From positions 1-64,000 of the forward strand of contig JYFJ02001102.1 in NCBI GenBank assembly GCA_000934665.2: 64,000 nucleotides of DNA, read 5' to 3'. The notes beneath the pieces are model-generated. The model was not told where the DNA came from. It made no database searches and saw only the letters and a program-made list of their open reading frames with translations. Each line of letters starts with the position of its first letter. The first letter of the stretch is position 1. Positions 1 through 56,015 of the stretch are shown here, in pieces. Origin of the DNA: Catajapyx aquilonaris (taxonomy: Eukaryota). The position numbers were made by a program, and so were the translations under genes.

Positions 1-1049
1 AAATTTTTTTTCTTGTTTCTTATTGGGAACATGTTCAGAAAATGCAATAGGAACTGACATTGCGTTAAAAAATTCTTCTCAGGTCTCAGGAGGATATAGT
101 AATGACAAAGTGAGCCTTACGTAGATGCTACAGTTGACAACTTGGGTTTGTGACAACGAAATACTTTATTGTTGATAATTGTGCTGCTGCATTGATTTTT
201 AAAATGTGATTCACAGATGATAGAGTTTAGAGTGAATTGTTAATTAACACAACATGGTAGTTCGGCATATTATTTTCCTTGCGATTTTCAAATTACTGTC
301 AGGGTAAAAGAGGATAGCAGCAATGATAGATTCTTGCTGATTAGTGAATGAGCTGCACAAGTTGAAATGTTAGCCAAAGGATGAGTGATTACATGCACTT
401 TAGATTTTGCGCAATGGAATGAGCATTTTGACAGCAAGTCCGGATGTATTTTGATGGGCATTATGCATACAATATCAGAGCCGTTATTTTTTGACCAAAG
501 TACTGATCTGATGCAGGTCACATGGGGTTTGCTGAAACTGTAGTTTATTGCATGCAGCACTACTTAACCAATTGGTTCTGGAATTAATACTGTATTTGCA
601 AATGTTATTAATCAATGAAATGAAACATTTTTCAGTTGCTGTGTTTGAGTAATCTGAAACTTAAAAATAACAGTGCCGAATCACTAATAATAATAGACAA
701 CCTACATTTGTTTATCAGAACCAAGGGGGTAAAATGTAGTTGTGCGTGCCTAAACCTGAAGGTAAATCGACGATTGCACTGGAATTATGAATTCCAATTT
801 TTGGTGTAACTTGTGAATGGAGTATAAACCTGAACTCTGTAAATTGCACAATGCTTCTTCTCAAGTATGTTTGGGTAATCGAAAAATATGGTTGCACATC
901 CCAACTTCTGCTCCCACCTGTTGCCACACAAATTACATATGTTCCAAAATTGTTGAGTCTGTACCTCTAATGTGAGTGTGTGTGTTTGCTTGTGTGTTCC
1001 CCCAACTCCCTGCCTTTCCCCTGACCTGTTCGACAATCGACAACATCAG

Positions 1050-10881
<9,832 letters not shown>

Positions 10882-15084: not shown

Positions 15085-15538
15085 CTCTCTGCCGGAGGGG
15101 GTCAGAGGTCAGGGAATCAGCAGAAATTGGGAGGGGGAAAAAAATCCAACCCAAATGTGTGGTTCGAATGTTCGGGAAAAAAATAAGAGACGTCAGGCCT
15201 AGCGATCGAAGCGATCGAAAGTGCTGCTGTCTGCTGGTCACTTTCCGAAGCTACGACTAGTCCGGAGGGAAGTTTAAAACACTTATTCTTCAATTACGGA
15301 TTAAATTAAAATGAGTACAATTAATTAACTTGATACAATCGTACGGTCATATATCCGGAAACACCGCGGCATTGCCAGTTCTACCCTATACTTATGCTGG
15401 TTTGTATAACAGAGTCGATGTGGCAACGTTGAAATTCACTTGTATAATCAAAATGGTGATATCATTACATGTGTGAATCACTGTAAAAAGGGGCGTTGAC
15501 GCGTTGTATTATTTTTGCGGTGCACACCACTTTTCAAT

Positions 15539-18078
15539 ATGGATAGTCTAGACCCAGTGCGATCTGGTCCAGGGGCAGCTCCTGGGCAGGCACAAGGGCC
15601 AGCTGATGACCCACCAGCAGCCAATGGTGCTACTTCATGCGTACAAGTAGTGCCAGCGCAGGGAGAACCAACCCAATGTAGTGGCGGGGACGCCTCAGGT
15701 AAGGAGGAGCAGGTAGAATGAAGATAATTTGGAGGTAAATATTGTTCTAACAAGATAATTATTTTGCCCGGCTTTATGAATGCTTACTTTTTTTTTAAAA
15801 AAAAAAAAAGCGTCCCTAACTGGTTAGATGGTTTGGCCGGATTTGGCAGTCTCTGAAACGGATATGGTTCTGCTGGTGAAGATATATATAGTTTTCAAAT
15901 ATTCTACACATTATGCGAGTTCATATAAGCAGATGGTGTACTGCATAATGATTTGAGAAGATTCTATTATAGGTAGGAGAATAATTACATGACTGGAGAT
16001 GCTGGATATGAATGGACTTTTCATGAGATGCATTTTGTTTTGTGACTGATACTCATGAATTTACTTCATGAAACCCTTATTGGCTTATTCTCAGGCATAT
16101 TTTTATAGATACTCGGAATTATATGTGTTGCTCTGCATCGTAATCAAGTTTGGAGGCATGACATCCTGTTCCAATAGTTTACGTATGCAATGAAAATAAT
16201 ATCAGCTACGGTACCTATGTACGAGTAATTGATGGTTTGACCTTCAAGCATTAGGTTTTTTCACTATTATTTAATCGAGATTAGTCTACTTGCATGGCCA
16301 GATTTCCTTAATTCTGGTATGTGCTGGGCAGTGCGTTGCATGTTGGTGGAATTGTTTCAATTGCACTCTCTTTTTATATGTAGCAGAAATTATTGTCCAG
16401 AAAAGCCATGTTCAGTTGCTGTAATACCTCCTTTTCCAGCTGTCCCTCCTTCAGTGCAACCTGCCGTACTGCCGAACAATGAAGAATGTGTTGAACCACG
16501 TGAGAACCTGTCAGGTAGGGGAGGTCGTCATGCTCTGTACCTCAGCATGCTTCTCATCGAGGCAGATTATTTCACACTGGAAGCACTTCACAATTCCTGA
16601 TTTTCCAGTGTGCAGTGCACTTGAGGGGCCTGGAGGAGGACAGCCTAACTCAGGAGGAGGTGGTGGAGTGGTCAGTATGCCTGCAGATCCACAGATGCAG
16701 TTGCGCCGGCAAGAGGTGCTTCAGCGCATGAATCAGAACCAGCTGTTGAGGAGAAGAGTGGCCACCATGCTGATGGGCAGCTGTCCCCCAGTGGCTCCCT
16801 CCATGCCGTCTGGTATGCCGCAGCAGCCATCACCAACTACTCCATCTGCAAGCATGATGAGGGTAGGGCAAGTGGGAGGGGGCAGAGGAGGTGGCCCACC
16901 ACTTCCCCCGCAGATAATGGCACAGCAGGGAATGAGGGGCCCAGATCCAGGTCCTGCCCTGGGACCTCGTCCAGTGGGGATTCCAGGTGGCCCACCTGTT
17001 GTCCCTGGAGCTGCTGCTGCAGCTGCAGCAGGGCAAGCAGGGATTCAACAGGGGGGGATTCCTCAGGCTCTACAGCAACTGCTTCAGGCACTCTGCTCAC
17101 CCAGCTCCCCTCAGCAACAACAGCAAGTCCTACAAATTCTCAGGAGCAATCCTCCACTTATGCAAGCATTCATCAGGCAGCGGCAACAACTGCAGCAGCA
17201 GCAGGAGGAGGAGGTGAGATTAATTTTTTCATGAGCACCTTATGGCTTAGTCCAGGCTATTTCATAAGTATCGTCAACATAACTGATACACACAAAGTAG
17301 CACTTACAGTTAGTATGTTCTATCGCCTGGTGAAGTCCATTTCATTTAGTCATAACTCATAAGGTTGATAATCGGCCTGCACGCCAGAATTTTTTGTCAT
17401 CATTTACATTTAAGCAAGTGCAAGATAAAATATTGGCCTTCGATCAACCTCGAAATTGATTTTTTGGGACACAGTGCGTTTCACTTACAGCAATGATAAT
17501 AATAATTATATAGTCATAGGTAACCCTTGAAATTGTATTGGATTGGCTCTGTTTGCTAACAGTAACTGATCATTTTATGGGGAGAGGTCCATGAAAAGCA
17601 TGTGCTATTTATGTACAGTTGACTCGGGATATAACAATCTCGGTCATAACAGATTCTTGGTAATATCAGACTCAAAAAGCTAGTTCCACGCCACACTTCC
17701 ATAAGGCCCTGCATATTTTGATATCAGTCATAATTATGACAGACCTCGATTATGGCAGACTGATTTAAGCGGCCTTTTGAAGTCTGTTATATCCGTAGTT
17801 TACTGAATAAGAGATGAAAATACAATAGAAATTTGCATATGGTGCAGATAATAACACGATATGAAGAAAGTTCTGATCTTTATAATCTGGTTTTTCCTGT
17901 CCAATAATGCCTGGAAGGGGCTGGTGTGGTTGTGATCATCTAAATTCATGATGTCTTGTTTACTATTATGAAGTAATACTGCACATGATCGTATCTCCGT
18001 TGTCACTAATTCGAGGCATTGCAGCAGGAGATGCAAAGTGGAGGTTGGGCAGGAGCAGACATGCACTGTGAAGAGTAG
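15539..18078 (+). CDS. CBP-derived partial paralogue A (NCBD-containing, HAT-less, degenerate TAZ1); functional gene or young pseudogene
   Basis: Open model: 15539-15698 (ATG; G|gtaagg), optional 16440-16514, 16609-17213 (GAG|gtgaga), 18016-18078 (TAG), giving 275 or 300 aa. Alternative: ORF from ATG 16479 through the TAZ1 remnant. High DNA similarity to CBP 8353-8420, 8024-8190, 9140-9488 and to the CBP intron 9489-9777. Confidence 0.65.
17616..17805. mobile_element. pogo/Tigger-like MITE remnant in an intron of paralogue A
   Basis: TA-CAGTTGACTCGGGATATAACA ... TGTTATATCCGTAGTTTACTG, imperfect TIRs starting CAGT; absent from the homologous CBP intron. Confidence 0.6.
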
Positions 18079-20301
18079 CATGTGGTGCTGTGGATGAAGT
18101 TTCAGCCTTCAACTGTTGTATCCAGTTGGACTGGAGACGCACCTGATGGGCCAGAAGCGGATCACACCAGATATTTATCCAGAGACACTGTTGCATCAAA
18201 GTGTGCTTCACAGCCACTTGTTGTCGCAGGGATTCATTGTTCTACTGCTCATATACTCCCAAGTTTTTGTTGACACGCACATCACATATTGTGGTGCAGC
18301 AAGAGTAAAGAGAACTAATGTGGAGATGAGGAAAGTAATTATTCAGTTGTACTCTACCAGGTTGTTGGATGAATGGAACAGAAGCAATGATGGCTATGAT
18401 CAATGGCTGTGAATTTTTTAAAATAAACAAACCGTGCCATCTGCTTTTTAAATCTTAAGTATTATTTCCTATTATTTCAAATCCACCCTTCCTCCTAATT
18501 GCAGGTTGCAGAATGTGGCAATCATGCATGAAGAAATCCATGTCATTCATTGTTCACTTGCGGTCTGGGATTTAAAGTTACTTATCAATTGTATACCAAT
18601 GACGATGAGCAGAGAAGTTGTTCTACCTGCTTCACTCCAGCATGTAACAATTTCTCTTTTGCATTACTGCAGCAGAGAGAAATTCTGTGATTTAGTTCTA
18701 AAGCGGAAAGAAATGCTGGGTTGTGATCTGAGTTGACACCCATGCAGTTTCTTTTAATTTCTGTAATGGGTAAGTGAATGAATTAAGTGGAGAAGGTATC
18801 GAATGTTTACAATCTTATTTTCAGAAGGAATTTCAAGAAAGTAGGGGTTTATAAGTTATGGTACAGTACATTTCACATTAAAAATTACTTGTTGTTAGTG
18901 TAGTGTTGTAGATTTGTGCTCTATTTCATCCCTTGATGATTCCTGTCAGAAAATTAGACTGACAGTCATATCTAGAGTTTGTTAGATTTTTGAACGCAAC
19001 TTACTGTAGCAAATTCGGTCAAAATAAGGAGTATGGAACAGCACCATACAAATCACCTGCAAAATAATAGTCATCCTGGTATAACATTAATAATGAAACG
19101 TCACTTTGGAGAAAATTAATTTTTCATCATTATTTTAATGTCAATATCATAGATGTTTTCATTGCAGATGATCAAGGAAGTTTCAATCTAGGTGTTCTTG
19201 GTGTCTGAGGTGTTTGCCAGCCTCCATCGCCATGACCATATGCCTGACCATAGATATTAATATCTACGGGCGTGACCTCTTACCCCACTCCAATAATGAC
19301 ATGTTATACTTGTGCTCTTGTGCTGAATGGTTATACTGACTTGAGGGTGTGCGGTGTGGCAATGTTGGAAACATGGATTAGGTATGTAAGGACTTCCCTG
19401 CCTTTATCAACGTTGACAACCTGTATATATTATGGGGGGTGACAAATGTGATGAGCCACGTCTAAATAATATACGATGCAGTTGGCTAGTTTGCATTGCA
19501 ATTAACTGGTAAGTTTAAAAGGGTTCTGCAACCACAATGAAATATTGCATAAATATGCATAATGTAATTATTGCTCACAGTATTCTACATCTTAGACGGC
19601 ATAAGAAAATTATTATGACCCTTTTCGGTCCTGCATAATTTAAGGCTGACCTAATTTTGCATTTTTTTTTGATACTTTCATTAATTAGCATGGAATATAG
19701 TGTGCATTTTAGGCATAGAGCAGGCAGCAAAAGTTGTGAATTATTGTCTCGGTTGGCCCCTTTATTTATAGCAGTCTGCCTTGAAGTCTCACATTTGTCA
19801 CCAATATTTCATGGATCAACTTTTATTGCGACTGATGCAGCATCGATCTCCTCCTTTCAAATTTCGCGCGCACGTTTGTTTTATTTTGCGCTTATACTTT
19901 CGCGACATATTTACTATTTACATGTACCTAATATTTCCCCCCTATTGTTTAATTCACAAAATGCCATGTTTTAAAATGTACGGCGATTTTAGACTAAAAT
20001 ATGGTAATTTTGACTCTAGTTGTTCGGCAGATTCTGGGTAGCTTATACACGGGTCAGGTTGGCAACGCTGCCCCTACGCGTTCGGAGGGAAACGTGATAA
20101 GGGGACCTGGGGAAGTCCCCCGGGTTGGAAATGTCAACGACATGTGGGGGCATGCAAGTATAAGGACCGTGTGATTCATGATCACAGGATAAAAGAAAAG
20201 AGGCGTTGCCCCAACAGGCTCAGGAAGAAGAAGAAGAAGAGTTGGTTGGGCAGGACCGAGAGCAGGACTCGTCCTTTATTGCTGTGCACACCACTTGCAA
20301 T

Positions 20302-23218
20302 ATGGATAGTCAAGGCCCAATGCAATCTGGCCCAGGGGCAGCCCCTGGGCAGGAACAAGAACAGACTTACCCAGGTCTGCGGGGGACTAAGGAATGGCAC
20401 CAGTCAGTGACTCCTGACCTCAGAAATCATCTGGTACACAAACTGTGAGTATCCAGTTTTGGGTAGGAATTTGTAAGAAGATGTATTTTCCTCTGAATAA
20501 TGTCAGTGGTGATTGACAAATTCTGTAAACCACAGGGTACAAGCAATATTTCCAACACCGGACCCTCAGACCATGCAAGACAATCGGATGCACAACCTGG
20601 TGGCTTATGCCAGAAAAGTTGAAGGGGACATGTACGAGATGGCTAACTCGAGGGTGAGTGTTGTGCCCAGGTTGTGCCCCAAGTAGTTAGCATTGCTGCC
20701 AGAATAACAAGATAGTGTAATACTCCTAAGATAATTCCAACTAACATAATGGATGTCAAATGTTATATTGACTAAAGTGAACAGCATGGCATTTCAAATC
20801 TGCAGCTTCCAACTTTAGGGGAACTCACATGACAAAATATCCTGATCACTGTTGAGACTTATACTTGCGCAGCTGTAATTTTTTTGGCCCTCTCGCGACC
20901 AAATCAATATGGTATCTGAAATTAACCCTGGAACCGTGCCATGCCTACGAGTATTACGGCAACCGTGCCGTGGGGTCTTTTCGGACCCCACCATATTTTA
21001 ATTTTTATTAATTATTATATAATACTTTTCGATGTGTTGACTATATTATACAATCATTCTTTGAACAATGCCTAAAAGGATCGCTAATTCAAAAGAAACC
21101 TGCAATTCCTGTTATATAATGTAAAAAAATGGCAGAAGTTCATTGTAATTATCATTTTAATGCATTTTTTCCTTGGGGTCCAAAAAGACCCCACAGCACG
21201 GTTCCAGGGTTAATGTTTTCATGTAGCCTTGCTATGTAATTTGAATTTTTATTTTTCTGTGTATATGAATGTATCAAAAGTGATTCCAGGCAAATTGGTC
21301 AAGTAGTTGCGAGCCTCGCGAATTTGTGTCCATATACTCATGGACAACCCTAGCAACACGTAACTGTGGAGTGGCATGCTTGAAGAGCACTAATGCAGAG
21401 TTGAGGAAAAGAAATATTATTTTCAACTGCAGAGTGGAGCAGGATCAATGAGATATGAGAATGTGTGGGGAGGAGGAAAAAAAGTACTTTTAATACCTGC
21501 TAGCACCAGGTCAGACGCATTAAGCTTTTGTCAGATCAAGTCAGATGTATTGAGCTTGTCAGCTTTTGGTCTGTGGACATTTTTGACAGTCAGACACAAT
21601 CAGATGGAAGAACCATCTTGTGGAAATCAGAAACAATGTGTATGTCTGCAGACAGCCCTAAGATGTGGTTGCAATTACTAGCAGTTGTAGAAAATACCTA
21701 TCAGGCTCTATACTTTTCAAATCTGTCATAACCCTTTGCAAGTGACAAAGGGTAGCATTTATACATGGAGAAGTACAAGCCATTCCTTGTTTAGTTCCGC
21801 CCTAGGTCTTAAAGTTTCTTGTTGATTTAATTTTAAGTGATGGCTGAAGATATTCTCTCACAAGCTTCACTGGAATACTACCAAGTTGTGATTTTTCCTT
21901 GTTTCTCTAGTGTAGAGATATTCATTGATTTAGATCCATCCTGTAGAAGATTGAAAGTGATGTCAGGCTGTGATCTGAGTCGGTTCCAGGTTTCTAGAAT
22001 GAGTAATTGAATGAATTGAGTAAGGTGATGAATATTAAAACTTTATTTTCAGTCGGAGTATTACCACCTGCTGGCAGAGAAGCTTTACAAAATCCAAGCA
22101 GAACTAGGTGAGCTATACAGACGGATATTTGGAATTGGTTCGAGGAGATGTGACCCTACCAACACCTGTGGGCTGCTCTTTGCAGAGGAGAAGAGGCAGA
22201 AGCGAATGGAGATGCAACAGCAGCAGCAGGCACCTCCCCAGCAGCCAACTCAGCTGAGGCCGGTGGTACCCAATGTGTCCTTGCCGCTGAGGGGAGGACC
22301 TATGCTTCCAGCGGGTATGCAGGCAGCCCAAGGTGTGTGGAGCCAGTCCCCTGGTAAGTATACTTTTCAACTCTCAACTTGAAATTATGGGGGAAATTAT
22401 TTTATTGGTGGCTGGAAAGTCATGTAAGGAGAACGCAGGTGCCAAGATCATACAGGAACTACCAGGAACCAGATCCATTTGTATTCGAGTTCAAGTGCAG
22501 ACATGATTGTGCTTATTAGAGAAACTTCAGGCCTCCAGCTGCTGTAAACCTCAGAGATGGGATAACAGGGAAGAAATAACACTCACTCAGAATACACGTA
22601 GAATCTCTCAGCAAATATACTGTATCAGGCACTTCAATGCAATGATCAGTTAGCTCTGCCACTTGATTGCAAAATGTAACAAATAGCGTGGTTTTGATAT
22701 CCACTGTTAAATAATAATTGATGCCTAGAAGGGGTTGGTGTGGTCATGCTTTTTTATTTTTTTATTTTATTTTTACGTTACCCTGTGATAAGGCTGAGCC
22801 TTTTTAGGTGGGGTGGAATACCACCATTCCACTCCATTTTCCTGTATTTACTTCATTCACCGGTGCAAGGAGTCAAGGATGTAGGGTAGGGATAGGGATT
22901 TTTGGGGAGGGAACATGGGTGCAAGGTGCAATGTCGTAGCTATGGATCATGTGCTGTTCCCCAGGAGGTTAGGTTGCCAGACGCCTCCTTGGTGCAGGTC
23001 AGAGACCCTCCTGACGCATGTGAAAGGAGAGTTCCCCAGGCGGGGATTGAACCTGGGGCCTTTCACTCAGCAAGCCGAGACGTTACCATCTCGGCCATCT
23101 ACACCTCCCCTGGTCATGCTTATCTAAACTCATGACATCTTGGTCACTAATACTGAAGTAATACTGAATATGGTGTTTCTGTTGTTACTAATTCAGGCAG
23201 TGCTGCAGGAGCAGCAGC

Positions 23219-23250
<32 letters not shown>

Positions 23251-23403
23251 CAACAACAACCAATGGGCATGAATCCTGGTCAGAGGGAGCTTTGGATGGA
23301 GCACCAACTGCATTGTGGTCAGCCAGCCGAGGTCAGAGAGGAGCACACACCTACCCTGAAGAGTGACATAGTTGTGGGTCAAATGGCAGCCTTAAACTTC
23401 TAA
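20302..23403 (+). CDS. CBP-derived partial paralogue B: stand-alone KIX-domain protein (217 or 228 aa)
   Basis: Exons 20302-20444, 20536-20653, 22053-22107, 22186-22353, then 23201-23403 (polyQ/H frame) or 23197-23366; all GT-AG and phase-consistent with no stops. [86 protein letters not shown]. Confidence 0.82.
20926..21209. mobile_element. piggyBac-type MITE (284 bp) in intron 2 of the KIX gene
   Basis: TTAA on both sides (20922-20925, 21210-21213); perfect 14-bp TIR CCCTGGAACCGTGC; asymmetric subterminal inverted repeat AACCGTGCCGTGGGGTCTTTTCGGACCCCA / TGGGGTCCAAAAAGACCCCACAGCACGGTT. Confidence 0.9.
22752..23110 (-). mobile_element. tRNA-derived SINE in intron 4 of the KIX gene
   Basis: Minus strand begins GGGGAGGTGTAGATGGCCGAGATGG (box A) ... 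GGTTCAATCCC (box B); A-rich tail; 11-bp TSD TGGTCATGCTT at 22741-22751 and 23111-23121. Confidence 0.88.
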
Positions 23404-25165
23404 TGCTCCACATTTGATCTCCTGGTTGGACAAAGTGATTTTCTCCTTCATTGACTTTTCTCTGGAGTGTTTTTATGCCCTTTCCCTTCCAAATACGATA
23501 CATCTACATAATAATGCAGTCACTTAATAAAGTCAAGCCAATAAAAGAAAGGTTCCATGAAATACCCATTGTCATAAACTGTATAATTATAACTGCATAC
23601 AGCTGCTACACATTGTATTACTATTTTACGAAAGATATCAGTGCAGGCCTAACACTCCCTGATGTTAATCATTGGTTGCTGCTCTTCCAGTGAACCTCTT
23701 TAAACGAGATGCTGTTATATTCATATTGGACTGGCGGCACCTGAAGGACTGACATTAATGCATTGTCATAAGATATTTATCCAGAGTGCATTTTTTGGTC
23801 TACCTAAACAGGTACAGTAGGCTATAGTAGGAATCAGAATATTATGAACTTTGAAAAAATTGTAGAGCTGTAAATTGCACCAGTGCAAGGGTTTGGGCTG
23901 GTCATAGTAGGAGGGGGTCAGATAATTCAGACCCTTCCTAATCTACCCTCCTTGGGCTTATATCAGGAGGGGTAGTGGGCCTTCTAAACTAATTCGTTAA
24001 CTTTTTTGAAGACGCACCCTTTTGCATTTTTGACAGCAAATATGAATTCTAAGGTGTCGAAAACATATATTTTCATACCTGATTCATACCAGCCATGTCA
24101 AAAGTAGATCTAGCACCCACGTCAACCCAAGGTGATAAATGAGGAACAGAAAGAGTTGACCCCCTGAAGTAGCCACGCCTCTGTGGGTGGGACGAAGGTT
24201 CCCTTCTTGGTTCGGTCTAGTCACGCCAGAGGGAAACTAATCGCAACACTTCCCTGCTCCATCAGAGGTTCAGTCACGGCAAAGGACTTGTCACATGCTC
24301 TCAAGTTATTAGCTCTTGCTTGTAGCACATAATATTGTGGAGCAGCAACATGGCGACGAGAAAAGTAATTGTTCAGTAGCAAATAAATGGAACAGGAGCA
24401 ATGATTATAGCAATGATCAATGGTTGTAATTAATTTTAATAAAGAAACCAATATATTCCATCTGCTTAATAAATTCAAGCATTATTTCATATTATCCACC
24501 CTTACTCCTTGCATGTCACATTATGTTTCAATCATGCATGTCATTCCTTGCTCACTTGCAGTATGTACAGTATTTACTTATAATAAGTTATTTATAAATT
24601 TCATACCAATTATGACTAAGAGACTCAGTCTTTTAAACGTACCCCGCTATTTTGTAGCTAATATTATTAGTAGCCGCTTTGAAGTCACTGCTATCTGCCT
24701 CAGCCGTTGTGCTTGTTTCGGTCCGACCGAGTATAGGGAATGATTAGCGGGTTAGCCAACCACGAAAGTGTCATCAGCAACTGGAGGACACTTCTAGACC
24801 CTCTGAGAGTCTGAGTGCAGCAGGGGGGACGACAGACCGGGGGTTCGATGCTGGGGACAAGCCTCGTCTGGCCGTCGACAGATCACCCGGCCGGCAGCGG
24901 CACCATCAGGATGGACGGCAGCGCTGTAGCAGCGCCAGACGGCCGGCAATGTTGATCGTTCCATCGCCATCAGCTGCAGCAGAAGGAGGGGATCACGTGC
25001 GGGACATCTGGACGATCACTAGTCCCCACTCGAGGTGCCTGCATTTGTCACTTGACTCTAATCACACTACAGGATGTAGTACACTCAAGAGTTGTACGTC
25101 TTCTCCTTCAACCGTCCGCATTGTTCCATTCTAGGAATGTCCAGTGACCTGGCCAAATCAGGGGG

Positions 25166-28100
25166 ATGGGCAGCCAACCGGTGCTGTTTGAGCGCTGGTC
25201 CGGTTCAGTGGCGGACCCAAAGTTCGACTCGGAGATCCTCGAGGGGCAGTTCCGCAGGTCCACGGCTCCGCAGATACGCCTGCGTCTGAGGGTGGCCCTG
25301 CTCTACGTCCTCATCTCCTCCCTGGCATGGACCCTCTTCTTTTCATCCGCACACGACTCCGCCCCAGGGATGGCCCTCGGGTCCTTCTCCCTGGCGGCTC
25401 TCTCCGGGGCGGCCTCTGTCGTCACCAGGACAGCGTTCTACAAGCGGAGGGTCTATGTCGTCGGAGGAGTGGCGTCAGGAGTGCTCTGTCTTGCCACGCT
25501 GCTTGGGTTCATGGGAAGAGGTATTGCCTGCCTATCCAAATCGCATCAGTACAGTTAATGCACAAGAGTTGACAAACTCCCACTCTGAGAATATGGAAGT
25601 GTGCTTTTGTCGCATTTTTATTTATGGATCTTAGTAATCTCTCTCTGCACATCTGTGTGCACAGTTCTGTGCACATTGATCAGTTTGAGTTGCAAGGCCA
25701 TCTGTAAAAGGGAGTCTTTGTCACTCTTCCATGAATTAGCATGTGCATGTTAATGCATTTGTGAGACATGGTAAATAGACTCGTTTAAACGTGCACGTGT
25801 ACACCTTCAGCTGTTCCGTGAATCACTTGTGACCTTCACAGTATTTGCGTGTAACATGTAGTACATTTGTTTTCACTGTTGCAGATTACACATTTATTAA
25901 GTAATAGCCAGAAGCTTGTCTCTTGATGATGTAGGGATGAATTTGATGATAAACTTCGGGTTACTGAAACTTCCTGCATCGTCATCAGATAAAATGTGAC
26001 TGCAAGATGATTTAAATCACTGAATTCTTGGCATATTTGCAGAATATCCTAGTGGAGTAACGCATTTGCAATGGAATAATTTACAAGGACAGTATTATTA
26101 ACTTCACAGAAGTAACTTTATTGCCACAAGCTCTATGCGAGTGATGTCATGATATTGTAAGACTTTATCTTTTCCGCAGATGGCAGCCCTGTATCGGTGA
26201 GCCTGACTGGCTTGTCATCAATGGCCATTCAGGTGCTGCTTCTGAATTACACGGTGATGCCGCTTCCCCTGTACGCATGTGTGGTCATCAACATCGTGTA
26301 CTCCATTGCTTTTGAGATCTTGGCCGCCCTGGTTGGGGAAGGTTGCGGTGGCAGCGGTGGAGTGATATTTGCCAGGTGTCTGTTTCACCTGTGCGTGCAT
26401 GTTATCGGTCTGCACATACTGGTCAAATCCCAGGTGCGGATGAGAAGCATGTTCATGAAGGTGGGACAGTCGCTGCTTGTTAGATGCCAACTGGAGATGG
26501 AGAAGCATCTGAAGGAGAAAATGATCCATTCGGTCAGTTCAAAGGTAGAAGGAAATTTCCAGAGCATTGCGTAACATGCAGCATTTAATTTTAACAGGTG
26601 ATGCCGCCTAAAGTAGCAGAATGGCTTATGTCTGAAGCAGTTGCCGAAGAGAGTGTGACAATGGGTGAAGATGGGGAACGTTCAGAGTGCTCTTTTGGCC
26701 TTCGAAAGGTGTCATCACCACGTTCTTCTAACACTGCAGCCACCTTGAATGCAGTGGGCAAAGGTGATGACCTCCGCTCCCTCTTCCGGCCATTCAACAT
26801 GCACCGGATGGAATCCGTCTCCATTCTCTTTGCGGACATTGTGGGCTTCACTGGAATGAGCTCCAACAAGACAGCAGAGCAGCTGGTGACCCTCTTAAAT
26901 GACCTGTTTGGAAGGTTTGATGTCCTCTGCGGACGCCATGGATGTGAGAAGATCAGCACTCTTGGGGACTGCTACTATTGTGTTTCCGGTTGTCCCGAGC
27001 CACGTCCTGACCATGCCCTCTGCTGTGTTGAGATGGGACTTGCCATGATAGGGGCTATTGCTCTGTTTGACCAGGAGCGTAAAGAGTCTGTGGACATGCG
27101 AGTTGGTGTCCACACAGGGACTGTCCTCTGTGGAATTGTAGGGACCAAGAGGTTTAAGTTTGATGTTTGGTCTAATGATGTCACACTAGCGAACAGAATG
27201 GAATCCACTGGACGTCCTGGGAAGGTGCATGTGTCGGAGAAGACCCTGGCCTTCCTGCAGAATCAGTACTATGTGCAGCCTGCTGAACCTGTTCAAGGGG
27301 TGAGTTTTCAAATGCATGTGTAATATTTTTAATTTTTGATGATTGCCATAGTATTGATATACCTGTGTCTCCAATTGCTAGCTGAAGACTTACTTTATAC
27401 TTGGCCGCCGAGCTGAGATGGTGACCCAAGCCCTGGCTGTAGAGCCGTGGCTGTGCCCCCCTTCCCCTCTGCAACAATCGCCAGTGCGGCACCATCCATG
27501 CCCTACGCAGGGGCTGCCCCTAAGTAACCTGCCCCATATGGATGAGAAGAAGTCCTCCTCACTACCCTCTGTGTTTGATCCATCGAAGGGTGCAGGGGTG
27601 AGCATTCGCGATTTGGAAGAAATGGCCATCAAGAAGAATCCGAAGAAGAGACGGGAATCACGTCGGAAAGGGCTGGCAACGCTTCAGAGGTTGAAGAGGG
27701 CATCGGAGCGTCGGCAGCCATTACTAGACAGGGGGGCTAATGGAATTACTAACGGGGATTCCTTCCGGAGTCGCAGCAAGACCATGGTGCATGGGGCAAG
27801 CGAAGGGGTCAACCTTGGACAGCTGTCGCCTGGGAGTCTAAGCTTGAGCCATGGCTCAATCCAGCAACAGATTTGTGCCATGAATGGGATTGCCCCAGAA
27901 TGTGGGGGGCACGCAGGCAGCCGGGTGAGCAGCTACTACACTGCCAGCCACTCCACCATAAATGATCCAACTTCCACCAATGGTGAGTTGCATTTTTAAA
28001 ACCCTTAACATGTCCCTTCACTTACCTCGGAAGTCTGCGCAGTTGGTGGAACATTTGTTTCCAACTCAAGTTGATACCTATGACTTTAGAGTGACAAAAT

Positions 28101-29777
28101 TGACACCGCATTTGCGTCATTAATCAGTATTATTCTATTTAGCAAAATTTTAATACCTTTTTGTACCCACTAGATGTGTCCCCGGTAGCTACGAGTGGTG
28201 GGAGCGGTGGTGGACCAGAAGCGCAAATTCCACTGAATGAGAAACTAGCCCAGTCGCTTCAGCTGCGCAAACAGTCTGACATGCAGATGATTCGTTGCAT
28301 CCAGGACGATTCTTCCCACCGCCAGTATTTTTTGCGTCCTCCACTGCATCTGGCCACCCTTTTCTTCCTGGACAAGGATATGGAGAGGGCCTACCGACAG
28401 TGTGCCCACTGCTACGACGAGGGGCCGCCAACCACTCTGACGTCCCCCAAAGTCAACACTATAGTGGATGTTGGCGTAGCTGCAGTGGTGGTTGCGCTTC
28501 TCTGCATAGCCATGTTTGCATCCTTCCCACCTTCCATTCCATATGCAGTGATCTTCCCACTGGCAACGCTGACTGTTTCTGCCGCACTCTACACTGTCAT
28601 CAGGCATTCCCGGTTACTGACTGGCAAACAGTCATGGGTAATACGGCATGTGACAGGTGGAATAGTTGTTTCCATACCTGCTATAATAACACTTTCAAAT
28701 GCGGGTTGCACTGATCTAGCGACATTGAGCACTGCTGCTCTGGTCTCGCTGGTTCACTTTTGCGATTTCTCCCAGCTGGGATGCTGGGCCCGGACAGGGC
28801 TGGCTGCCCTGGCTGGTGCGGCCACAGTGGGAATCTGTGTCCCATGCCCTGCTCCAGCATGGCAGCATTGGGAGCTGGGTGTCTGCATCTTGCTGACCCT
28901 GATTTTAGTAGGATTCCTTAACCGCGAATTTGAGATGGGATTTAGACTTGGATTTCACTGCGCCAAGGTGGCCGCTCAGGATCGTAAAAGGGTGCAGACC
29001 TTGAAAGACCAAGCTGACTGGCTGCTTCATAACATAATCCCAAGGCACGTGGCAGAGCGACTTAAGACGGAGGCCAAGTACTCACAGAATCACCGCCGGG
29101 TTGGAATCGTGTTTGCAAGTATAGTCAACTTCAACGAGATGTACGATGAGACATACCAGGGCGGCAAGGAATATTTGAGGGTACTGAACGAGCTGATTGG
29201 CGACTTTGATGAGCTGCTGGACTTACCGCAATATCATAATGTGGAGAAGATCAAAACTATTGGCAGCACTTTTATGGCTGCCTCAGGACTCAACCCTCAA
29301 GCCAGGGAGACCAACGAGCATCCAGACCAGCATCTTTTTGAGTTGGTTGACTTCGCGTTGGAGATGCAGGTGGGTGTACGACCCTGTATAAGGATTCAAA
29401 GTACTGTGCTAATATCTTAAGTTCTTAACCTGTTGTTCTGACAGGATGTGATAGCCGAATTCAACCGTGACCTGATAGAATTCAACCTGATTCTGCGTGT
29501 TGGTTTGAACTTTGGTGACGTAACGGCAGGTGTGATTGGCACGACCAAGCTTTATTATGACATCTGGGGAGATGCGGTGAACATTTCCAGCAGGATGGAT
29601 ACTACTGGTGTTCAAGGAAGGATTCAGGTCAGCCAAGCCTGTGTTCCCGTACTCCAGGACAGGTACGAGCTGGAGGAGAGAGGGGACATATACGTCAAAG
29701 GGAAGGATCACATGTTGGTCTATCTGCTCAACAGTAGGAAGAAGGAAGAAGTTAGCCAAGATAGAAAGGAGGTCTAA
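25166..29777 (+). CDS. ADCY9: Transmembrane adenylyl cyclase type 9 (Ac13E-like), about 1180 aa; start codon uncertain
   Basis: Exons 25166-25520, 26180-26532, 26598-27299, 27382-27982, 28174-29369, 29445-29777, phase-consistent. Two hydrophobic TM clusters; C1a SILFADIVGFT, EKISTLGDCYYCVSGCPEPRPDHA, RFKFDVWSNDV; C2a FASIVNF, KIKTIGSTFMAASGL, GTTKLYYDIWGDAVNISSRMDTTG are AC9-type signatures. Possible extra 5' exon 24949-25034 spliced to 25162. Confidence 0.93.
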
Positions 29778-34123: not shown

Positions 34124-37100
34124 ATGGAGGTTTTGGAGAAGCTGAAGGAGACGGGCTGGTGCGTTCCAATCAATCTGAAATCCTCTGTACTTACACCTCC
34201 GTCGGTTCTCACCTGATTGCACAGCCCGCAATTGGGGCGTCGGGCTTGAGGCCACGGATAGTTGGGGGCAATTGGCCCACGTTCCATACTCTAGGCCTTG
34301 CTTTCTTGTTGTTGTTGTTGCTGGCAGTGTACTTACAAGGAACACTGGTTATATCATTAAGGTTAATTAGTAGTGCCAGTACATGTTGGTTGCTCTTGCA
34401 GGTTCCTGAGTGAAGAGGGCTTGGCGCAGTGCAGAGAAGGAGTGCACGGGAATGACGTTAGAGCGATCATACGTAACGCGCTGGATGTAAGTGAATGGCT
34501 GGAATATTGGTGGTAGTTGACATTTGTGTTAGCAAGAGCCTGAAATGGCTGATGACATTTATATTTATGTCAAACAGCATAATCCTATACAAAATTCGGA
34601 ACAAAAAGAGGACAGATTTTTATGTCGTACCAAATTTGAATAGTTTCAATGCTAAGAAGTAGCCTACAATTGTTTCATAGTACTGTTAAAATTTGAGGGC
34701 AACACTGTGGCGGAGTGGTTAGCGCCACAGCCTTCCACCTCTAAGGTCCCGAGTTCAATCCCCGGATCGGACGGAGGATACTTATGTGGATAGAGTTTCA
34801 ATGGGTTCTCTCCGTGTTCGCGTGGGTTTTCTCGGGGTTCTCCCGTTTCCTCCCACTATGAAAATCCATCACAGAAAAGGCAATGTTAAAGACGGGTAAT
34901 TAAAAAGATGATCCCCTAAAAAGCCCATGGAGGCTTATCACAGGGTATCCATTATTAATATTATTATTATTACTGTTAAAATTTGGCCCATTGAATCATA
35001 AAATTATTAATATTTAAAAAAATACATTTGGGAATACCTAATTTCGTCCAATTTGGCAACATTGATGATCATGTCAGTTTCAAAATAATCGCAACTGCAG
35101 TAAAGGCTGCATAGTTACATTACATAACCTACTCAGAGGAAAGGTGCACTGCATTTTTGTTAGTTGCATTGTGAATGAGACAATTCATTTACGAGTTGGG
35201 AAGATGTGATTTTGTTGGGCAGTGTTCATAATGAAATGAATCTTTTCAGACTGACCTGCGAGAGATAGGAACAACTTCTTTTCCAGACGATGTTTCTCGA
35301 GCCAAAGGCGCAACGGTTTGTGATGTTTTCGTACCTTTTTTCTTTGCATGCATTTTGTAATTGGCTTGTTGAATCCTCATTATGCTTGATTTTAGGTGGA
35401 AGGTCCGCTGGTGTTCCAGATCCAGAAGTTACGCAATGTAGGTGCTCCTAAGGCTAACGAGGAGTCAGGTTCGGCTCCTCGTATGCTGAGGTTGATCCTG
35501 ACTGATGGGAAACTCAGTTTCAATGCATTAGAGATGGTGACACTCCCTCGGCTAAGCCTGAACACACCGCCAGGAACTAAAGTGTGCCTGAATGGGTCTG
35601 TGCCTGTATCGAATGGGTTTCTTCTATTGCGGCCATCATGCATCACTGTGCTCGGTGGGAATGTTGCTGCCCTAGTTGAAAAATGGGACGTCCATAGGGT
35701 ATGTCTGTACTGATATTTTTCTTTGGTTGATATGCATATTTTTTACTGCAAATCATTTAGTAATTGAACATTGATTGCCTTATTTTTGCAGAGTCTTGCC
35801 AAACACAACCGTGGTTTGGGTCTGGGCTTGGAAGGGGGCCCACCACCTTGGATCCCATTTGGACAGAAGCGCATGTCATCCAATCCTAATGACAAGAACT
35901 TCAAGTCCCTGGGTGGTCTCCTAGGCTCAGATAAGGAGGGTCGCGAGGACTCGGAGTTTGAGGCTCAACGTAAAGATGCAATTGCAGAGGCAGCGAGGGG
36001 TGGATCCAAGAAAGTATTTGGTGGAGGCAACAAGCACATGCTGGATCGCAGCGTGCAACAAGTGGTGGACGCTGGATTCAGTGTGGATCAGGCCCAGGCT
36101 GCTCTGGCTAGGTCTAATAGGGAGGTGGATCGAGCCATCCGTAACCTCCAAAGGGTCACTGTGTCTGACTCTTCAGGAGAAGGGTTCAGGAAGCGCGAAC
36201 CACGATCTAAGGGGAAGGAAGCAGCAGGTGGAGACCGCAGGAAGCGGAATGATGATTCAGATGAGGTGCAGTCGAGGCCGTCTGGACCAGTTAGTCTGTT
36301 TGCTTTCTTGGAAGACAAACTGCCTGCCAGTGCTGCTGCTGCTGCAAGTGTGACACCGAAGGCTGAGCAGGACAACAAGTGGTACAACCCAGAAGAATCC
36401 CGCCCGAGGCGATATGACAACCGGGGCGAGAATCGTGATAACCGCTACGAGAACCGTGAGAGCCGTTATGAGAACCGGGACAGCCGCAGCAACCGGGGTG
36501 GGTTTCGACGTCAGCCGCAGAGGTTTCAAGACCAGTCTGATGGTCACAGCCGGGGACGAAACTATGATGACCACGACCACAATTACAACAGGGGTCGTCC
36601 TAATCAGCCACAGCCTGAGAACCAGAAGCCCCCACGGTTCCAGAACCGAAACAATAACAACAACAACAGCAGCACCACAAACAGCAGCTGGCCTTCAGGT
36701 AGTTTTGTACAGGGTTCCTGGAGCAACAACAGTTATGAGGAGAAACGAGATACGCAGCCACCACGTGTTGAACCCCAGCATGATCTCTGGGGCAGCATGG
36801 ATGGTTGGCCGCCACGAAGCGAGTCTCAACCTCAACCCCAACCGCAGCCGCCCCCACAACAGCAGCCCCGCAATTTCCCCCCGCCATTTTCTCAACCTTC
36901 GATGGGTTTCCAATCCTCGAACACATCGGTTGCAGCTGCCCTGCAATCATATGGAGGGTACTCGTGGCCCAGCGGATTGGATACCTCTACCCCTCCCCCG
37001 CAGCCATCGCAGCCATCGTATATCCAGCAGCATCAACCACCACCACAACAACAACAGCACCAGCACCAGCAGCAACAACAGCAGCAGCACCAGCAGCACC

Positions 37101-39092
37101 AGCAGCAGCACCAGCAGCAGCAACAAATGTCGCAGCCTCCTCCTCAACCTGGTGTCAATGGTTTTGCTCACCAGTGGAAAGTGGGAGACAAATGTCTGGC
37201 ACAATACTGGAAGGATAATAAGGTATTTTGAAGCACAATTTCTTTGACCATGTACACTTGTGGTACGTACATAACAGTCACAGTTGCTTACAAATATATC
37301 TGCAATTATTTTTGCAGTACTACCTGGCAGAAGTAACAAATGTGACCCAGCAGACATGCGTAGTCCATTACCTGGAGTACGGAAATCAGGAGGAGGTTTA
37401 TCAGCATGATTGCATCCCCCTTCCAGTAAGATGATTGGTTACTATTTCTCATGCACTGATTCAACAAAAATTTGTTTTTCCTTCTGGGTAACGTAGGATT
37501 GCATGAACTACCATGTGATGCCTTCCAACCCGAGTTCGGGTGGGACCTTCATGCCATTCAGCAACGGGCAGTTCTCAGGTTAGCAATTGTGCATTGTTGT
37601 AGAACCTGCTTGTCTGGCTGTAAGATGAGTTTTTGTTAAATATACATTTTGTCCTGCATGTGACCTTTTTTATTAATTGTAAGCTGACTTGCGCAGTTGA
37701 ACCTCTTCCAAGAAAATTTGAATCACCGAGAATTGCAGGCCTTCTGGGTAAAATGGACGCAATTGGATTGCTTGCCTCCACTGCTCCTTTGTGTTTAAGA
37801 ACTCGAGCAGGCATATGTTGACATCCGAACGTTACCTCGTTATATCGACACTATGTGCTCAGAACTAGCATTGCAATGATTTGTTCGTGACGTACTGAAC
37901 AAACTGAAATTCATTTTCTTGATAATACGCTGTACTCCCGATTATCCGGGTGCGGATTATCTGTGCATCACCAAAACAAAGGGGCCGTCCATAATCCGCG
38001 CGGACAGATTTTTGCACTTTTTTACCTCCCCTTTGCGGACAGACGCGGACAATATCTTACCTCCCCCCCTAAAAATTGCGCGGACATGGCCTCCTTGACC
38101 CCCCCCCCCCCTTCCCCCGCTTCGCCACACTGAAAGTGTTATTTTCAATATAATTATTATTGGTATTTTTCATTTTTTGATATCTACACACAAATTCCTT
38201 TTTTCAGAGGCATTACGGTATATATTTGAGAGGTCTGACTAAAAAAACGGCCGAGTCCTTAATATTCATTTGACGCTTATTGTCCGCGCGTACAACTGAC
38301 TCCTACCCCCACCCCCCTGTACGGACAAAAGTGGACCAAGTGCAATCCCCCTCCCCCCCTTCACTTGTCCGCGCGGACCCGCGTGGACGGCCCCAAAGGA
38401 AAATAAATAGATGTCTGAAAAAATGTCAATATAGTGTCTTGCAAACAAAGAAATATAACATACTTTTACCAGAGGACAAACTAAAATTGTGTGGGAAGTT
38501 TCGTCATTTGGATTAAACCATTATTTAAAGCAGCGTACCGTATATACAGTAGTTAATTTAAAACCTCTGAATGTCTCACTTTTATGGTATCTAAAGCCAT
38601 TTTCTGATTATCAAGCGACACCCATACAGTTATTAACCCGGATAATTGAAAGTACAATGTACATCATGTGATAGGGTAAGACATAGCATGTATTGTGCTT
38701 AAAATTTTCGATTCCAATTGTCCTATTTGAAACATGCTGCTTTTCTTGGGAGGCCTGTAATTTTTGGGGCGGTTACAGCGAAGAGGTTTTACTGCCAATT
38801 ATGTCGTGAGCACCTGGGAAGACTGAACACCGAACCACCATTGCCAGGTTCAGTGGAGTTCCGCCGGGGTGGCAACCGGCCGTACTTCAAGTACTCGTCT
38901 GGCGGGAAGTCGGGCGACCCCAGGGTGTCCAATGGCAACCAAATAATGGATGGGGATGGGGGAGGAGGCATGGGAGGAGGGGTGATGGGTGGAGGAGAGA
39001 TGGGAGGAGAAGGGATGGGAATGGGGAACAGGGAGAGGAGAAACCAGTGGCCCACACAGCAATACTACATGCCACCAGCACAGCGGAAATAG
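34124..39092 (+). CDS. TDRD3: Tudor domain-containing protein 3 (about 784 aa)
   Basis: Exons 34124-34158, 34402-34486, 35250-35315, 35396-35698, 35792-37222, 37318-37425, 37497-37578, 38848-39092 (alternative in-phase acceptor at 38779). N-terminal GWFLSEEG..ALDTDLREIG, OB-fold (FQIQKLRNVGAPKANEES..APRMLRLILTDG..LSLNTPPGTKV), UBA (VVDAGFSVDQAQAAL), Tudor (WKVGDKCLAQYWKDNKYY..HYLEYGNQEEV), C-terminal EFRRGG..PTQQYYMPP. Probable 5'UTR intron 34024-34086. Confidence 0.93.
34696..34970 (+). mobile_element. tRNA-derived SINE with V-SINE-like core in TDRD3 intron 2
   Basis: Box A TGGCGGAGTGG, box B GAGTTCAATCCC, core GTGGGTTTTCTCGGGGTTCTCCCGTTTCCTCCCAC, (ATT)n tail, perfect 15-bp TSD TACTGTTAAAATTTG (34681-34695, 34971-34985). 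Confidence 0.9.
37928..38659. mobile_element. Degenerate TA-flanked Tc1/mariner-pogo-type non-autonomous element
   Basis: TA flanks; inverted ends CGCTGTACTCCCGATTATCCGGG vs CCCGGATAATTGAAAGTACAATG (18/23 match). Confidence 0.55.
37981..38394. mobile_element. PIF/Harbinger-like MITE nested in the previous element
   Basis: TIR GGGGCCGTCCA..TCCGCGCGGACA / TGTCCGCGCGGA..TGGACGGCCCC; 3-bp flanks AAA/AAA; internal GCGGACA repeats and poly-C tracts. Confidence 0.7.
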
Positions 39093-55981: not shown

Positions 55982-56015
55982 CCCCCCCCCCCCCCCCCCN
56001 CCCCCCCCCCCCCCC
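55982..56015. repeat. Poly-C homopolymer containing an N (56000)
   Basis: Directly visible; the length is unreliable because of the ambiguous base. Confidence 0.9.

Follow-up and report, generated by a model that had tools for sequence, protein, structure and literature searches.

We analysed a 64,000-nucleotide stretch of Catajapyx aquilonaris DNA (contig JYFJ02001102.1, positions 1 to 64,000, hereafter the window), which opens with the 3' half of a gene for the co-activator CBP/p300 and carries downstream, on the same strand, two much shorter units built from pieces of CBP. The first of these (unit A) holds the NCBD domain, and the second (unit B), the main subject of this work, holds the KIX domain. 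Unit A lies 4.76 kb upstream of unit B, which itself sits 9.4 kb downstream of the parental stop codon and is a DNA-level partial duplicate of the adjacent CBP gene.

A preliminary description of this DNA had reported a KIX domain spread over four exons with clean splice sites, and our analysis bears this out. Introns 1 to 3 of unit B are all of the canonical GT..AG type in good contexts, and exons 1, 2 and 3 match positions 3-21, 23-61 and 61-80, respectively, of the 81 positions in the Pfam KIX profile (PF02172). Exon 2 is recognized alone (E 2e-16, 60.5 bits against a cut-off of 27) and also matches positions 23-61 of PDB chain 1kdx_A (E 1.6e-16), while exons 1 and 3 score 19.6 and 20.7 bits, each under the cut-off by itself. 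Six PDB matches are significant, each of them to a chain of CBP/p300. The KIX fold also occurs outside CBP/p300, in MED15/ARC105, with which unit B shares its location outside a CBP/p300 protein but from which it differs in being CBP-type in sequence throughout; a MED15-type KIX was rejected as an identification because every significant match is to CBP/p300.

Exons 1-4 together encode 161 residues, starting from an initiator Met that aligns with a Met in some relatives. Position 22353, where exon 4 stops, is a splice donor (CCCCTG/gtaagt) and not the end of the gene, and building open reading frames (ORFs) from it yields two candidate endings: exon 4 may be spliced to 23197, giving a stop codon at 23364-23366 and a protein of 217 residues, or translation may continue past the donor at 22354 as far as a stop codon at 22380-22382, for a protein of 170 residues. 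The term "stand-alone", which the preliminary description had applied to this gene, therefore holds in part, as the ORF of unit B starts at its own ATG but its last recognized exon runs up to a donor, short of the 3' part of the transcript. Intron 3 is in frame and free of stop codons (the ORF at 22032-22382 spans it), such that its retention would add 26 residues. When intron 3 is read through, its first bases yield GELYRRIF, and the CBP read-through ORFs of two other animals (P0009 and P0014) yield GKYRRIF and GKYRIIF at the same intron; judging from these translations, the start of intron 3 may be conserved.

To look for signs of transcription we relied on X1, the sole public run found to contain part of the window (0.20 of the words), whose kind is not on record and for which 8 of 168 contig pieces are listed; no run listed as RNA contains it. 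A single X1 contig carries all three joints of unit B, each with GT..AG ends (Table 1). The same run removes two introns of the parental CBP gene (7333>7769 and 8491>9072) and two of unit A. Since X1 skips introns in CBP, unit A and unit B alike, the run is most simply derived from complementary DNA, which supports the conclusion that unit B is transcribed and spliced; the preliminary description had made its reading depend on expression, and the contig lacks all three introns. Two further kinds of joint, 9487/9488>10734-10743 and 9487>22210, were set aside as artefacts, as they fall within CAG repeats and have sides of 21-27 letters. Among the 8 of 168 pieces listed there is no X1 cover at 14.3-15.0 kb, at 19.0-19.7 kb or beyond 24.3 kb, on which we place no weight.

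Next, we compared the KIX domain of unit B with those of other animals, numbering residues as in mouse CBP (1kdx_A position 23 being Val608, and 1sb0_A positions 72 and 77 being Ile657 and Lys662). The comparison started from 238 proteins, of which 154 gave ungapped matches to an 88-residue stretch; 81 of these span positions 5-84, and 57 are distinct. Across the KIX core (residues 591-668), unit B carries the majority residue at 73 of 78 positions. The five departures are Thr619 (shared by 8 of the 57 sequences), Gln621 (3 of 57) and Asn623, Leu657 and Ala662 (each 0 of 57). The last two oppose Ile657 and Lys662 of 1sb0_A, both of which are present in 56 of the 57 sequences, and are encoded by CTT at 22083-22085 and GCA at 22098-22100. 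By contrast with these departures, the groove residues Leu599, Leu603, Leu607, Tyr650, Ala654 and Tyr658 are all kept and equal the majority residues in the spliced translation and alignments, as are the residues of the MLL face. Leu657, Ala662 and the retention of Tyr650, Ala654 and Tyr658 had all been read from the letters beforehand, and the codons and the numbering (checked on 1kdx and 1sb0) agree with that reading. Because Lys to Ala requires at least two base changes within one codon, the substitution at 662 is notable inside an otherwise frozen helix.

Exons 1-4 align colinearly with the part of insect CBP that runs from before to after the KIX domain, at 63-71% identity over 150-165 residues. 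The introns at HKL/VQA and ANSR/xEYY are shared with the CBP/p300 read-through ORFs of other animals, including the vertebrate-type P0085 and P0087, in agreement with the preliminary description, which placed these phase 2 and phase 0 introns where they lie in vertebrate CBP; the intron after KEL likewise recurs in several invertebrate read-through ORFs (P0009, P0014, P0031 and P0034). Given that three introns are kept, unit B is a DNA-level copy and not a retrocopy, as had been proposed, and a processed pseudogene was rejected on the same ground, the positions being common to other animals' CBP genes. About 840 bases past exon 4, the stretch 23111-23225 repeats the final part of the last parental intron together with the first part of the exon that follows it, and is 84% identical to 9692-9806. 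Searching with three CBPs by tblastn (P0074, P0044 and P0175) returned only a TAZ1 fragment and KIX between 11 and 24.7 kb, with no bromodomain, HAT, ZZ or TAZ2 there; those domains were found only at 2.2-8.3 kb. Unit B thus has the features of a HAT-less partial paralogue: it is near its parent, it has kept an activator-binding domain, and the HAT domain is gone. Downstream of units A and B, the stretches 18369-18567 and 24383-24565 show a further 200 nt of similarity (~70%), which suggests that the duplicated block does not stop at the last coding exon but takes in part of the 3' untranslated region.

Table 1. Coordinates of the parental CBP gene, sister unit A and unit B in the window, with the basis for each
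Feature	Position	Strand	Basis
Parental CBP/p300 gene, 3' half	1..10881	+	ORFs, Pfam, tblastn with three CBPs, spliced X1 contigs
Parental bromodomain	2226-2552	+	ORFs and Pfam
Parental HAT_KAT11	5266-6126	+	ORFs and Pfam
Parental ZZ	6.7-7.4 kb	+	ORFs and Pfam
Parental TAZ2	from 7751	+	ORFs and Pfam
Parental NCBD/Creb_binding	9051-9488	+	ORFs and Pfam
Parental last exon, Q-rich, C-terminus ...KFVEQL-stop	9778-10881	+	ORFs
Sister unit A, 300-codon ORF ending ...CEE-stop	15539..18078	+	X1 joints, ORF, Pfam
Unit A exons	15539-15698, 16440-16514, 16609-17213	+	X1 joints 15695>16437 and 16511>16606, both cut +3, GT..AG (15698/16440, 16514/16609)
Unit A candidate last exon	18016-18078	+	ORF building: conserved donor 17213 to acceptor 18016
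Unit B exon 1: ATG, 25 pre-KIX-aligned residues, start of KIX helix 1; ends ...HK + CT, phase 2	20302-20444	+	Sequence and translation; Pfam positions 3-21; X1 joint 20444>20536
Unit B intron 1, 91 nt, phase 2, GT..AG	20445-20535	+	X1 joint; same position in other animals' read-through ORFs (...RVQAIF)
Unit B exon 2: remainder of helix 1, then loop and helix 2; G + VQAIF...ANSR, phase 0	20536-20653	+	Sequence and translation; Pfam; PDB 1kdx_A
Unit B intron 2, 1399 nt, phase 0, GT..AG	20654-22052	+	X1 joint 20652>22052 (cut +1)
Unit B exon 3: KIX helix 3, ends + G, phase 1	22053-22107	+	Sequence and translation; alignment to 1sb0
Unit B intron 3, 78 nt, phase 1, GT..AG	22108-22185	+	X1 joint 22105>22184 (cut +2)
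Unit B exon 4: AG + EKRQKR...SQSP + G; KIX end (EEKRQKR), Q/P-rich post-KIX linker; phase 1	22186-22353	+	Sequence and translation; aligns with insect CBP linker up to ...SP
Unit B candidate last coding exon, copy of parental last-exon start; phase 1, giving 56 residues, ...PEE-stop	23197-23366	+	Similarity and ORF building

Only the 3' half of the parental gene lies in the window, so its KIX and TAZ1 exons must lie upstream of it, as the preliminary description had placed the former. We searched a protein collection with the parental TAZ2-linker ORF, for which 263 of 1674 candidates were significant; the best full-coverage matches are arthropod CBPs at 63-66% identity, as would fit an invertebrate without a close relative in the searched collection. 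Downstream of CBP and on the same strand follow an adenylate-cyclase gene with two Guanylate_cyc domains (24748-29777, +) and a TDRD3-like gene with an RMI1_N OB fold and a UBA domain (35396-37231, +). In human 16p13.3, CBP presumably adjoins ADCY9. The assembly has one N, at window position 56000.

Two repeat-like features lie within and beside unit B. Intron 2 holds a pair of 30-nt terminal inverted repeats (20961-21203) that are 93% complementary, 183 nt apart and miniature-transposon-like, and the X1 contigs at this place show variant copies. The stretch 22800-23100, which separates exon 4 from the copy of the last exon, reaches a summed X1 contig depth of ~800 with many variant letters and is probably a dispersed repeat. 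ARAGORN reported no tRNA gene in 20600-23400.

Sister unit A appears to be an NCBD-only CBP offshoot, with a predicted protein in which the NCBD (Creb_binding) is intact (Pfam E 2.3e-18) and a TAZ1-derived exon is translated outside the TAZ frame. Its kinship with unit B is visible at both ends. At the 5' end, 15532-15596 and 20295-20359 are 88% identical, and the two units have in common the ATG and its context, comprising ~25 bases upstream of the ATG and the first ~19 codons. At the 3' end, unit A too carries a duplicate of the first part of the last parental exon (17927-18030), and its stop codon (...CEE) is homologous in alignment to the phase-1 stop of unit B (...PEE), from which the two units likely share a last exon. 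An AATAAA stands at 18422, and record 6 of X1 breaks off shortly after it, at 18434. The CBP-derived pieces at 16622-17415 follow a non-parental order (parental 8344-8419, 8022-8192 and then 9139-9684) within a single exon, in which the second piece passes into the third without the intron that parts them in the parent; shuffled and fused in this manner, they imply several rearrangements.

We then asked how much change the KIX exons would have been expected to accumulate since duplication. In the duplicated non-coding DNA, 21-25% of positions differ from the parent (Jukes-Cantor distance, JC, 0.24-0.30), and the NCBD exon of unit A differs from the parental one with a synonymous divergence (dS) of 0.42 and a ratio of nonsynonymous to synonymous divergence (dN/dS) of 0.38, in a pair that has one constrained partner and of which the first ~25 aligned codons are doubtful. 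In neutral simulations of 78 codons at 0.12-0.21 substitutions per site, 19-29 residue changes are expected, five or fewer changes have P <=5e-5, and a stop codon arises in 70-84% of runs. The 5 changes in 78 residues, set against the 19-29 expected at the divergence of the flanks, suggest that the KIX exons have been under purifying selection, unless they arose much later than the DNA around them or underwent recent conversion.

On balance we lean toward unit B being a retained KIX-only competitor of CBP docking. Its most likely product would be a protein of ~170-217 residues in which a folded CBP-type KIX is followed by a short disordered tail, and from which acetyltransferase, bromodomain and zinc fingers are all missing. 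Lacking any catalytic or chromatin-reading part, such a protein could act only through the two ligand surfaces of KIX. The cellular supply of CBP/p300 is limiting, so that its docking domains are an object of competition among activators. If translated and active in the nucleus, the KIX of unit B would occupy activation domains (of the CREB-KID, Myb and MLL/Trx types) that recruit full-length CBP, and would thereby compete with or buffer CBP from within the cell, as a decoy resembling a microProtein; unit A would titrate NCBD ligands likewise.

The meaning of Ala662 depends on how the phosphate of CREB is held. According to two sources (PMC2289845, PMC9814494), pSer133 of KID contacts Tyr658 and Lys662, which agrees with the contacts given in the preliminary description; the phosphate contributes ~1.5-3 kcal/mol, mostly through a hydrogen bond to Tyr658, and Y658A abolishes binding. 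On this lysine our literature search turned up a simulation study, but no affinity measured on a mutant of Lys662. Since Tyr658, the main contributor to the phosphate effect, is kept in unit B, the effect of Ala662 is likely a partial loss of phospho-dependent KID binding and not its abolition, and phospho-independent ligands should be unaffected. A shift of partner preference away from phospho-CREB, as the preliminary description had suggested, would be a reasonable hypothesis on the basis of these residues. A fuller version of this reading, which we offer tentatively and regard as doubtful, is that units A (NCBD-only) and B (KIX-only) are tandem expressed minigenes with a shared start and last exon that serve as competitive inhibitors of co-activator recruitment, with B retuned by Lys662Ala (together with Ile657Leu and Arg/Lys623Asn) such that it would ignore the CREB phosphorylation switch and prefer constitutive KIX ligands.

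If unit B is indeed selectively maintained, it would amount to a genetically encoded competitor at the docking step, all the more so beside an NCBD-only sibling. Lys662Ala offers a natural experiment on the share of the second phosphate contact in CREB recognition. Several observations weigh against a retained competitor. The case for constraint takes the KIX exons to be of the same age as the flanking duplicate, and recent gene conversion from the parent would mimic its result; the parental KIX exons lie outside the window, which places both the copy-specificity of Leu657 and Ala662 and the dN/dS of the copy beyond the comparison. Pieces of CBP lie jumbled across the locus, with an out-of-frame TAZ1 exon and transposon-like repeats, as is typical of decaying duplicates, and joining exon 4 to 23197 uses a non-parental frame and gives a low-complexity A/P/T tail that looks accidental. 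The contigs that support splicing all belong to one run, whose kind is not recorded, and among the 8 of 168 X1 pieces listed no joint leaves the exon 4 donor at 22353, although we place no weight on this. No orthologue or near relative of unit B appeared in the searched protein and metagenome collections, and the phosphate effect is credited mostly to Tyr658, which unit B keeps (PMC2289845).

The main rival reading is that unit B is a transcribed but functionless remnant, a decaying tandem duplicate whose KIX exons are younger than the rest or were recently converted by the parent, and in which Leu657 and Ala662 are the first neutral changes. We consider this a serious possibility, though an unlikely one. 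The scrambled neighbourhood, the TAZ1-derived exon of unit A translated out of frame, the repeats in intron 2 and at 22.8-23.1 kb, the copied last exon entered in a different frame and the want of an orthologue in the searched collections all fit a remnant. They have to be set against the fact that all eight splice signals are intact and three introns are removed, that 5 of 78 positions are off-majority where 19-29 would be expected and a stop codon would have arisen in 70-84% of neutral runs, and that the three unique changes are not scattered but fall at or near ligand-facing positions, with Lys to Ala needing two hits in one codon. Were unit B a decaying duplicate, it would be an ordinary by-product of local duplication.

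It is improbable, in our view, that the KIX exons are instead internal to a longer transcript, one that starts in unit A or CBP or runs on into adenylate cyclase, with the ATG at 20302 not being the real start. Such a transcript would suit the undefined 5' and 3' ends and the donor at the end of exon 4, which also count against a self-contained competitor, as well as the order of units A and B, which is that of CBP (TAZ1, then KIX). However, none of the X1 joints listed links CBP, unit A, unit B or cyclase, the sole long-range joint (9487>22210, with a 21-letter side) lying in CAG repeats; an in-frame stop stands at 20179-20181 and no AG acceptor directly precedes the ATG; and units A and B share their ATG, its context and ~25 upstream bases, as expected for the same kind of start. 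Least probable of all is that the copy has nothing of its own in Leu657 and Ala662, these being present in this lineage's parental CBP or representing a rare allele in the window: the parental KIX lies outside the window and the best full-coverage CBP matches are only 63-66% identical, but neither residue occurs in any of the 57 distinct KIX sequences, which span many groups of animals, and the X1 contig that spans exon 3 with both flanking joints lists no alternative letters there, though that run may share the assembly's material.

Returning to unit B as a retained competitor, we sought relatives and comparable systems. A protein search with exon 2 gave 557 significant matches among 575 candidates; among the 120 listed none is identical and the best reaches 95%, in a search that covers proteins of <=2000 residues and in which the full-length parent could therefore not appear. 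A metagenome scan with the unit B ORF at 22032-22382 gave 522 pattern matches and zero relatives, and a scan with P0009 gave 80 loci, of which the best DNA match to unit B is ~80% and confined to exons. Literature searches on KIX-only proteins, microproteins, truncated CBP and isolated or over-expressed KIX found no natural KIX-only animal gene.

The closest sequence likeness is to the KIX of CBP/p300 itself (PF02172; 1KDX, 1SB0, 2AGH, 6DMX), whose three-helix sequence pattern is the same in unit B; the CBP/p300 domain sits within an acetyltransferase of 2000+ residues, whereas that of unit B is not so embedded and carries Ala662, Leu657 and Asn623. KIX proteins without the rest of CBP/p300 are also annotated in other animals. 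The decapod "CBP/p300-like" proteins P0088 and P0089 (Penaeus vannamei) and P0111 (Scylla paramamosain), of 194-258 residues, consist of KIX and a Pro-rich tail only; both Lys662 and Ile657 are retained in them, their identity to unit B is 60-62%, and they are likened to it here by protein sequence. The teleost protein P0004 (Myripristis murdjan) has four KIX repeats and a SOCS box, and is thus, as unit B is, a case of a CBP/p300-type KIX copied out of the co-activator, although its architecture differs and its role probably does too. Lys662 is kept in the decapod proteins and in the conserved repeats of the fish protein, whose later repeats have Gly and Arg in its place.

In its proposed mode of action, unit B resembles the microProteins, described in one source (PMC6003976) as single-domain competitors derived from multi-domain regulators, the classic cases of which titrate dimerisation domains. 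Unit B, with a predicted 170 or 217 residues, KIX as its sole domain and a multi-domain parent, has this form, but its domain serves co-activator docking and not dimerisation, and titration of its partners is a prediction.

The nearest parallel in gene structure comes from Caenorhabditis elegans, where two partial duplicates that lack the HAT, cbp-2 (TAZ1 and KIX) and cbp-3 (TAZ1), lie near cbp-1 and resemble each other at their 5' and 3' ends; according to PMC10320766, both are expressed, were formerly called pseudogenes, and alter promoter activity when targeted by RNA interference. Like these genes as so described, unit B is a short, parent-adjacent partial duplicate without the acetyltransferase, and it likewise belongs to a pair of units with similar ends. 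Unlike them, one unit of the pair is KIX-only and the other NCBD-only, the origin is independent and in a different lineage, and the pair is known here from sequence. Enzyme-less CBP offshoots are thus already known in nematodes, and what sets this locus apart is the presence of Ala662 and Leu657 together with the unusual NCBD-only partner. As an independent example beside cbp-2 and cbp-3, unit B suggests that enzyme-less offshoots of CBP arise repeatedly and may be retained.

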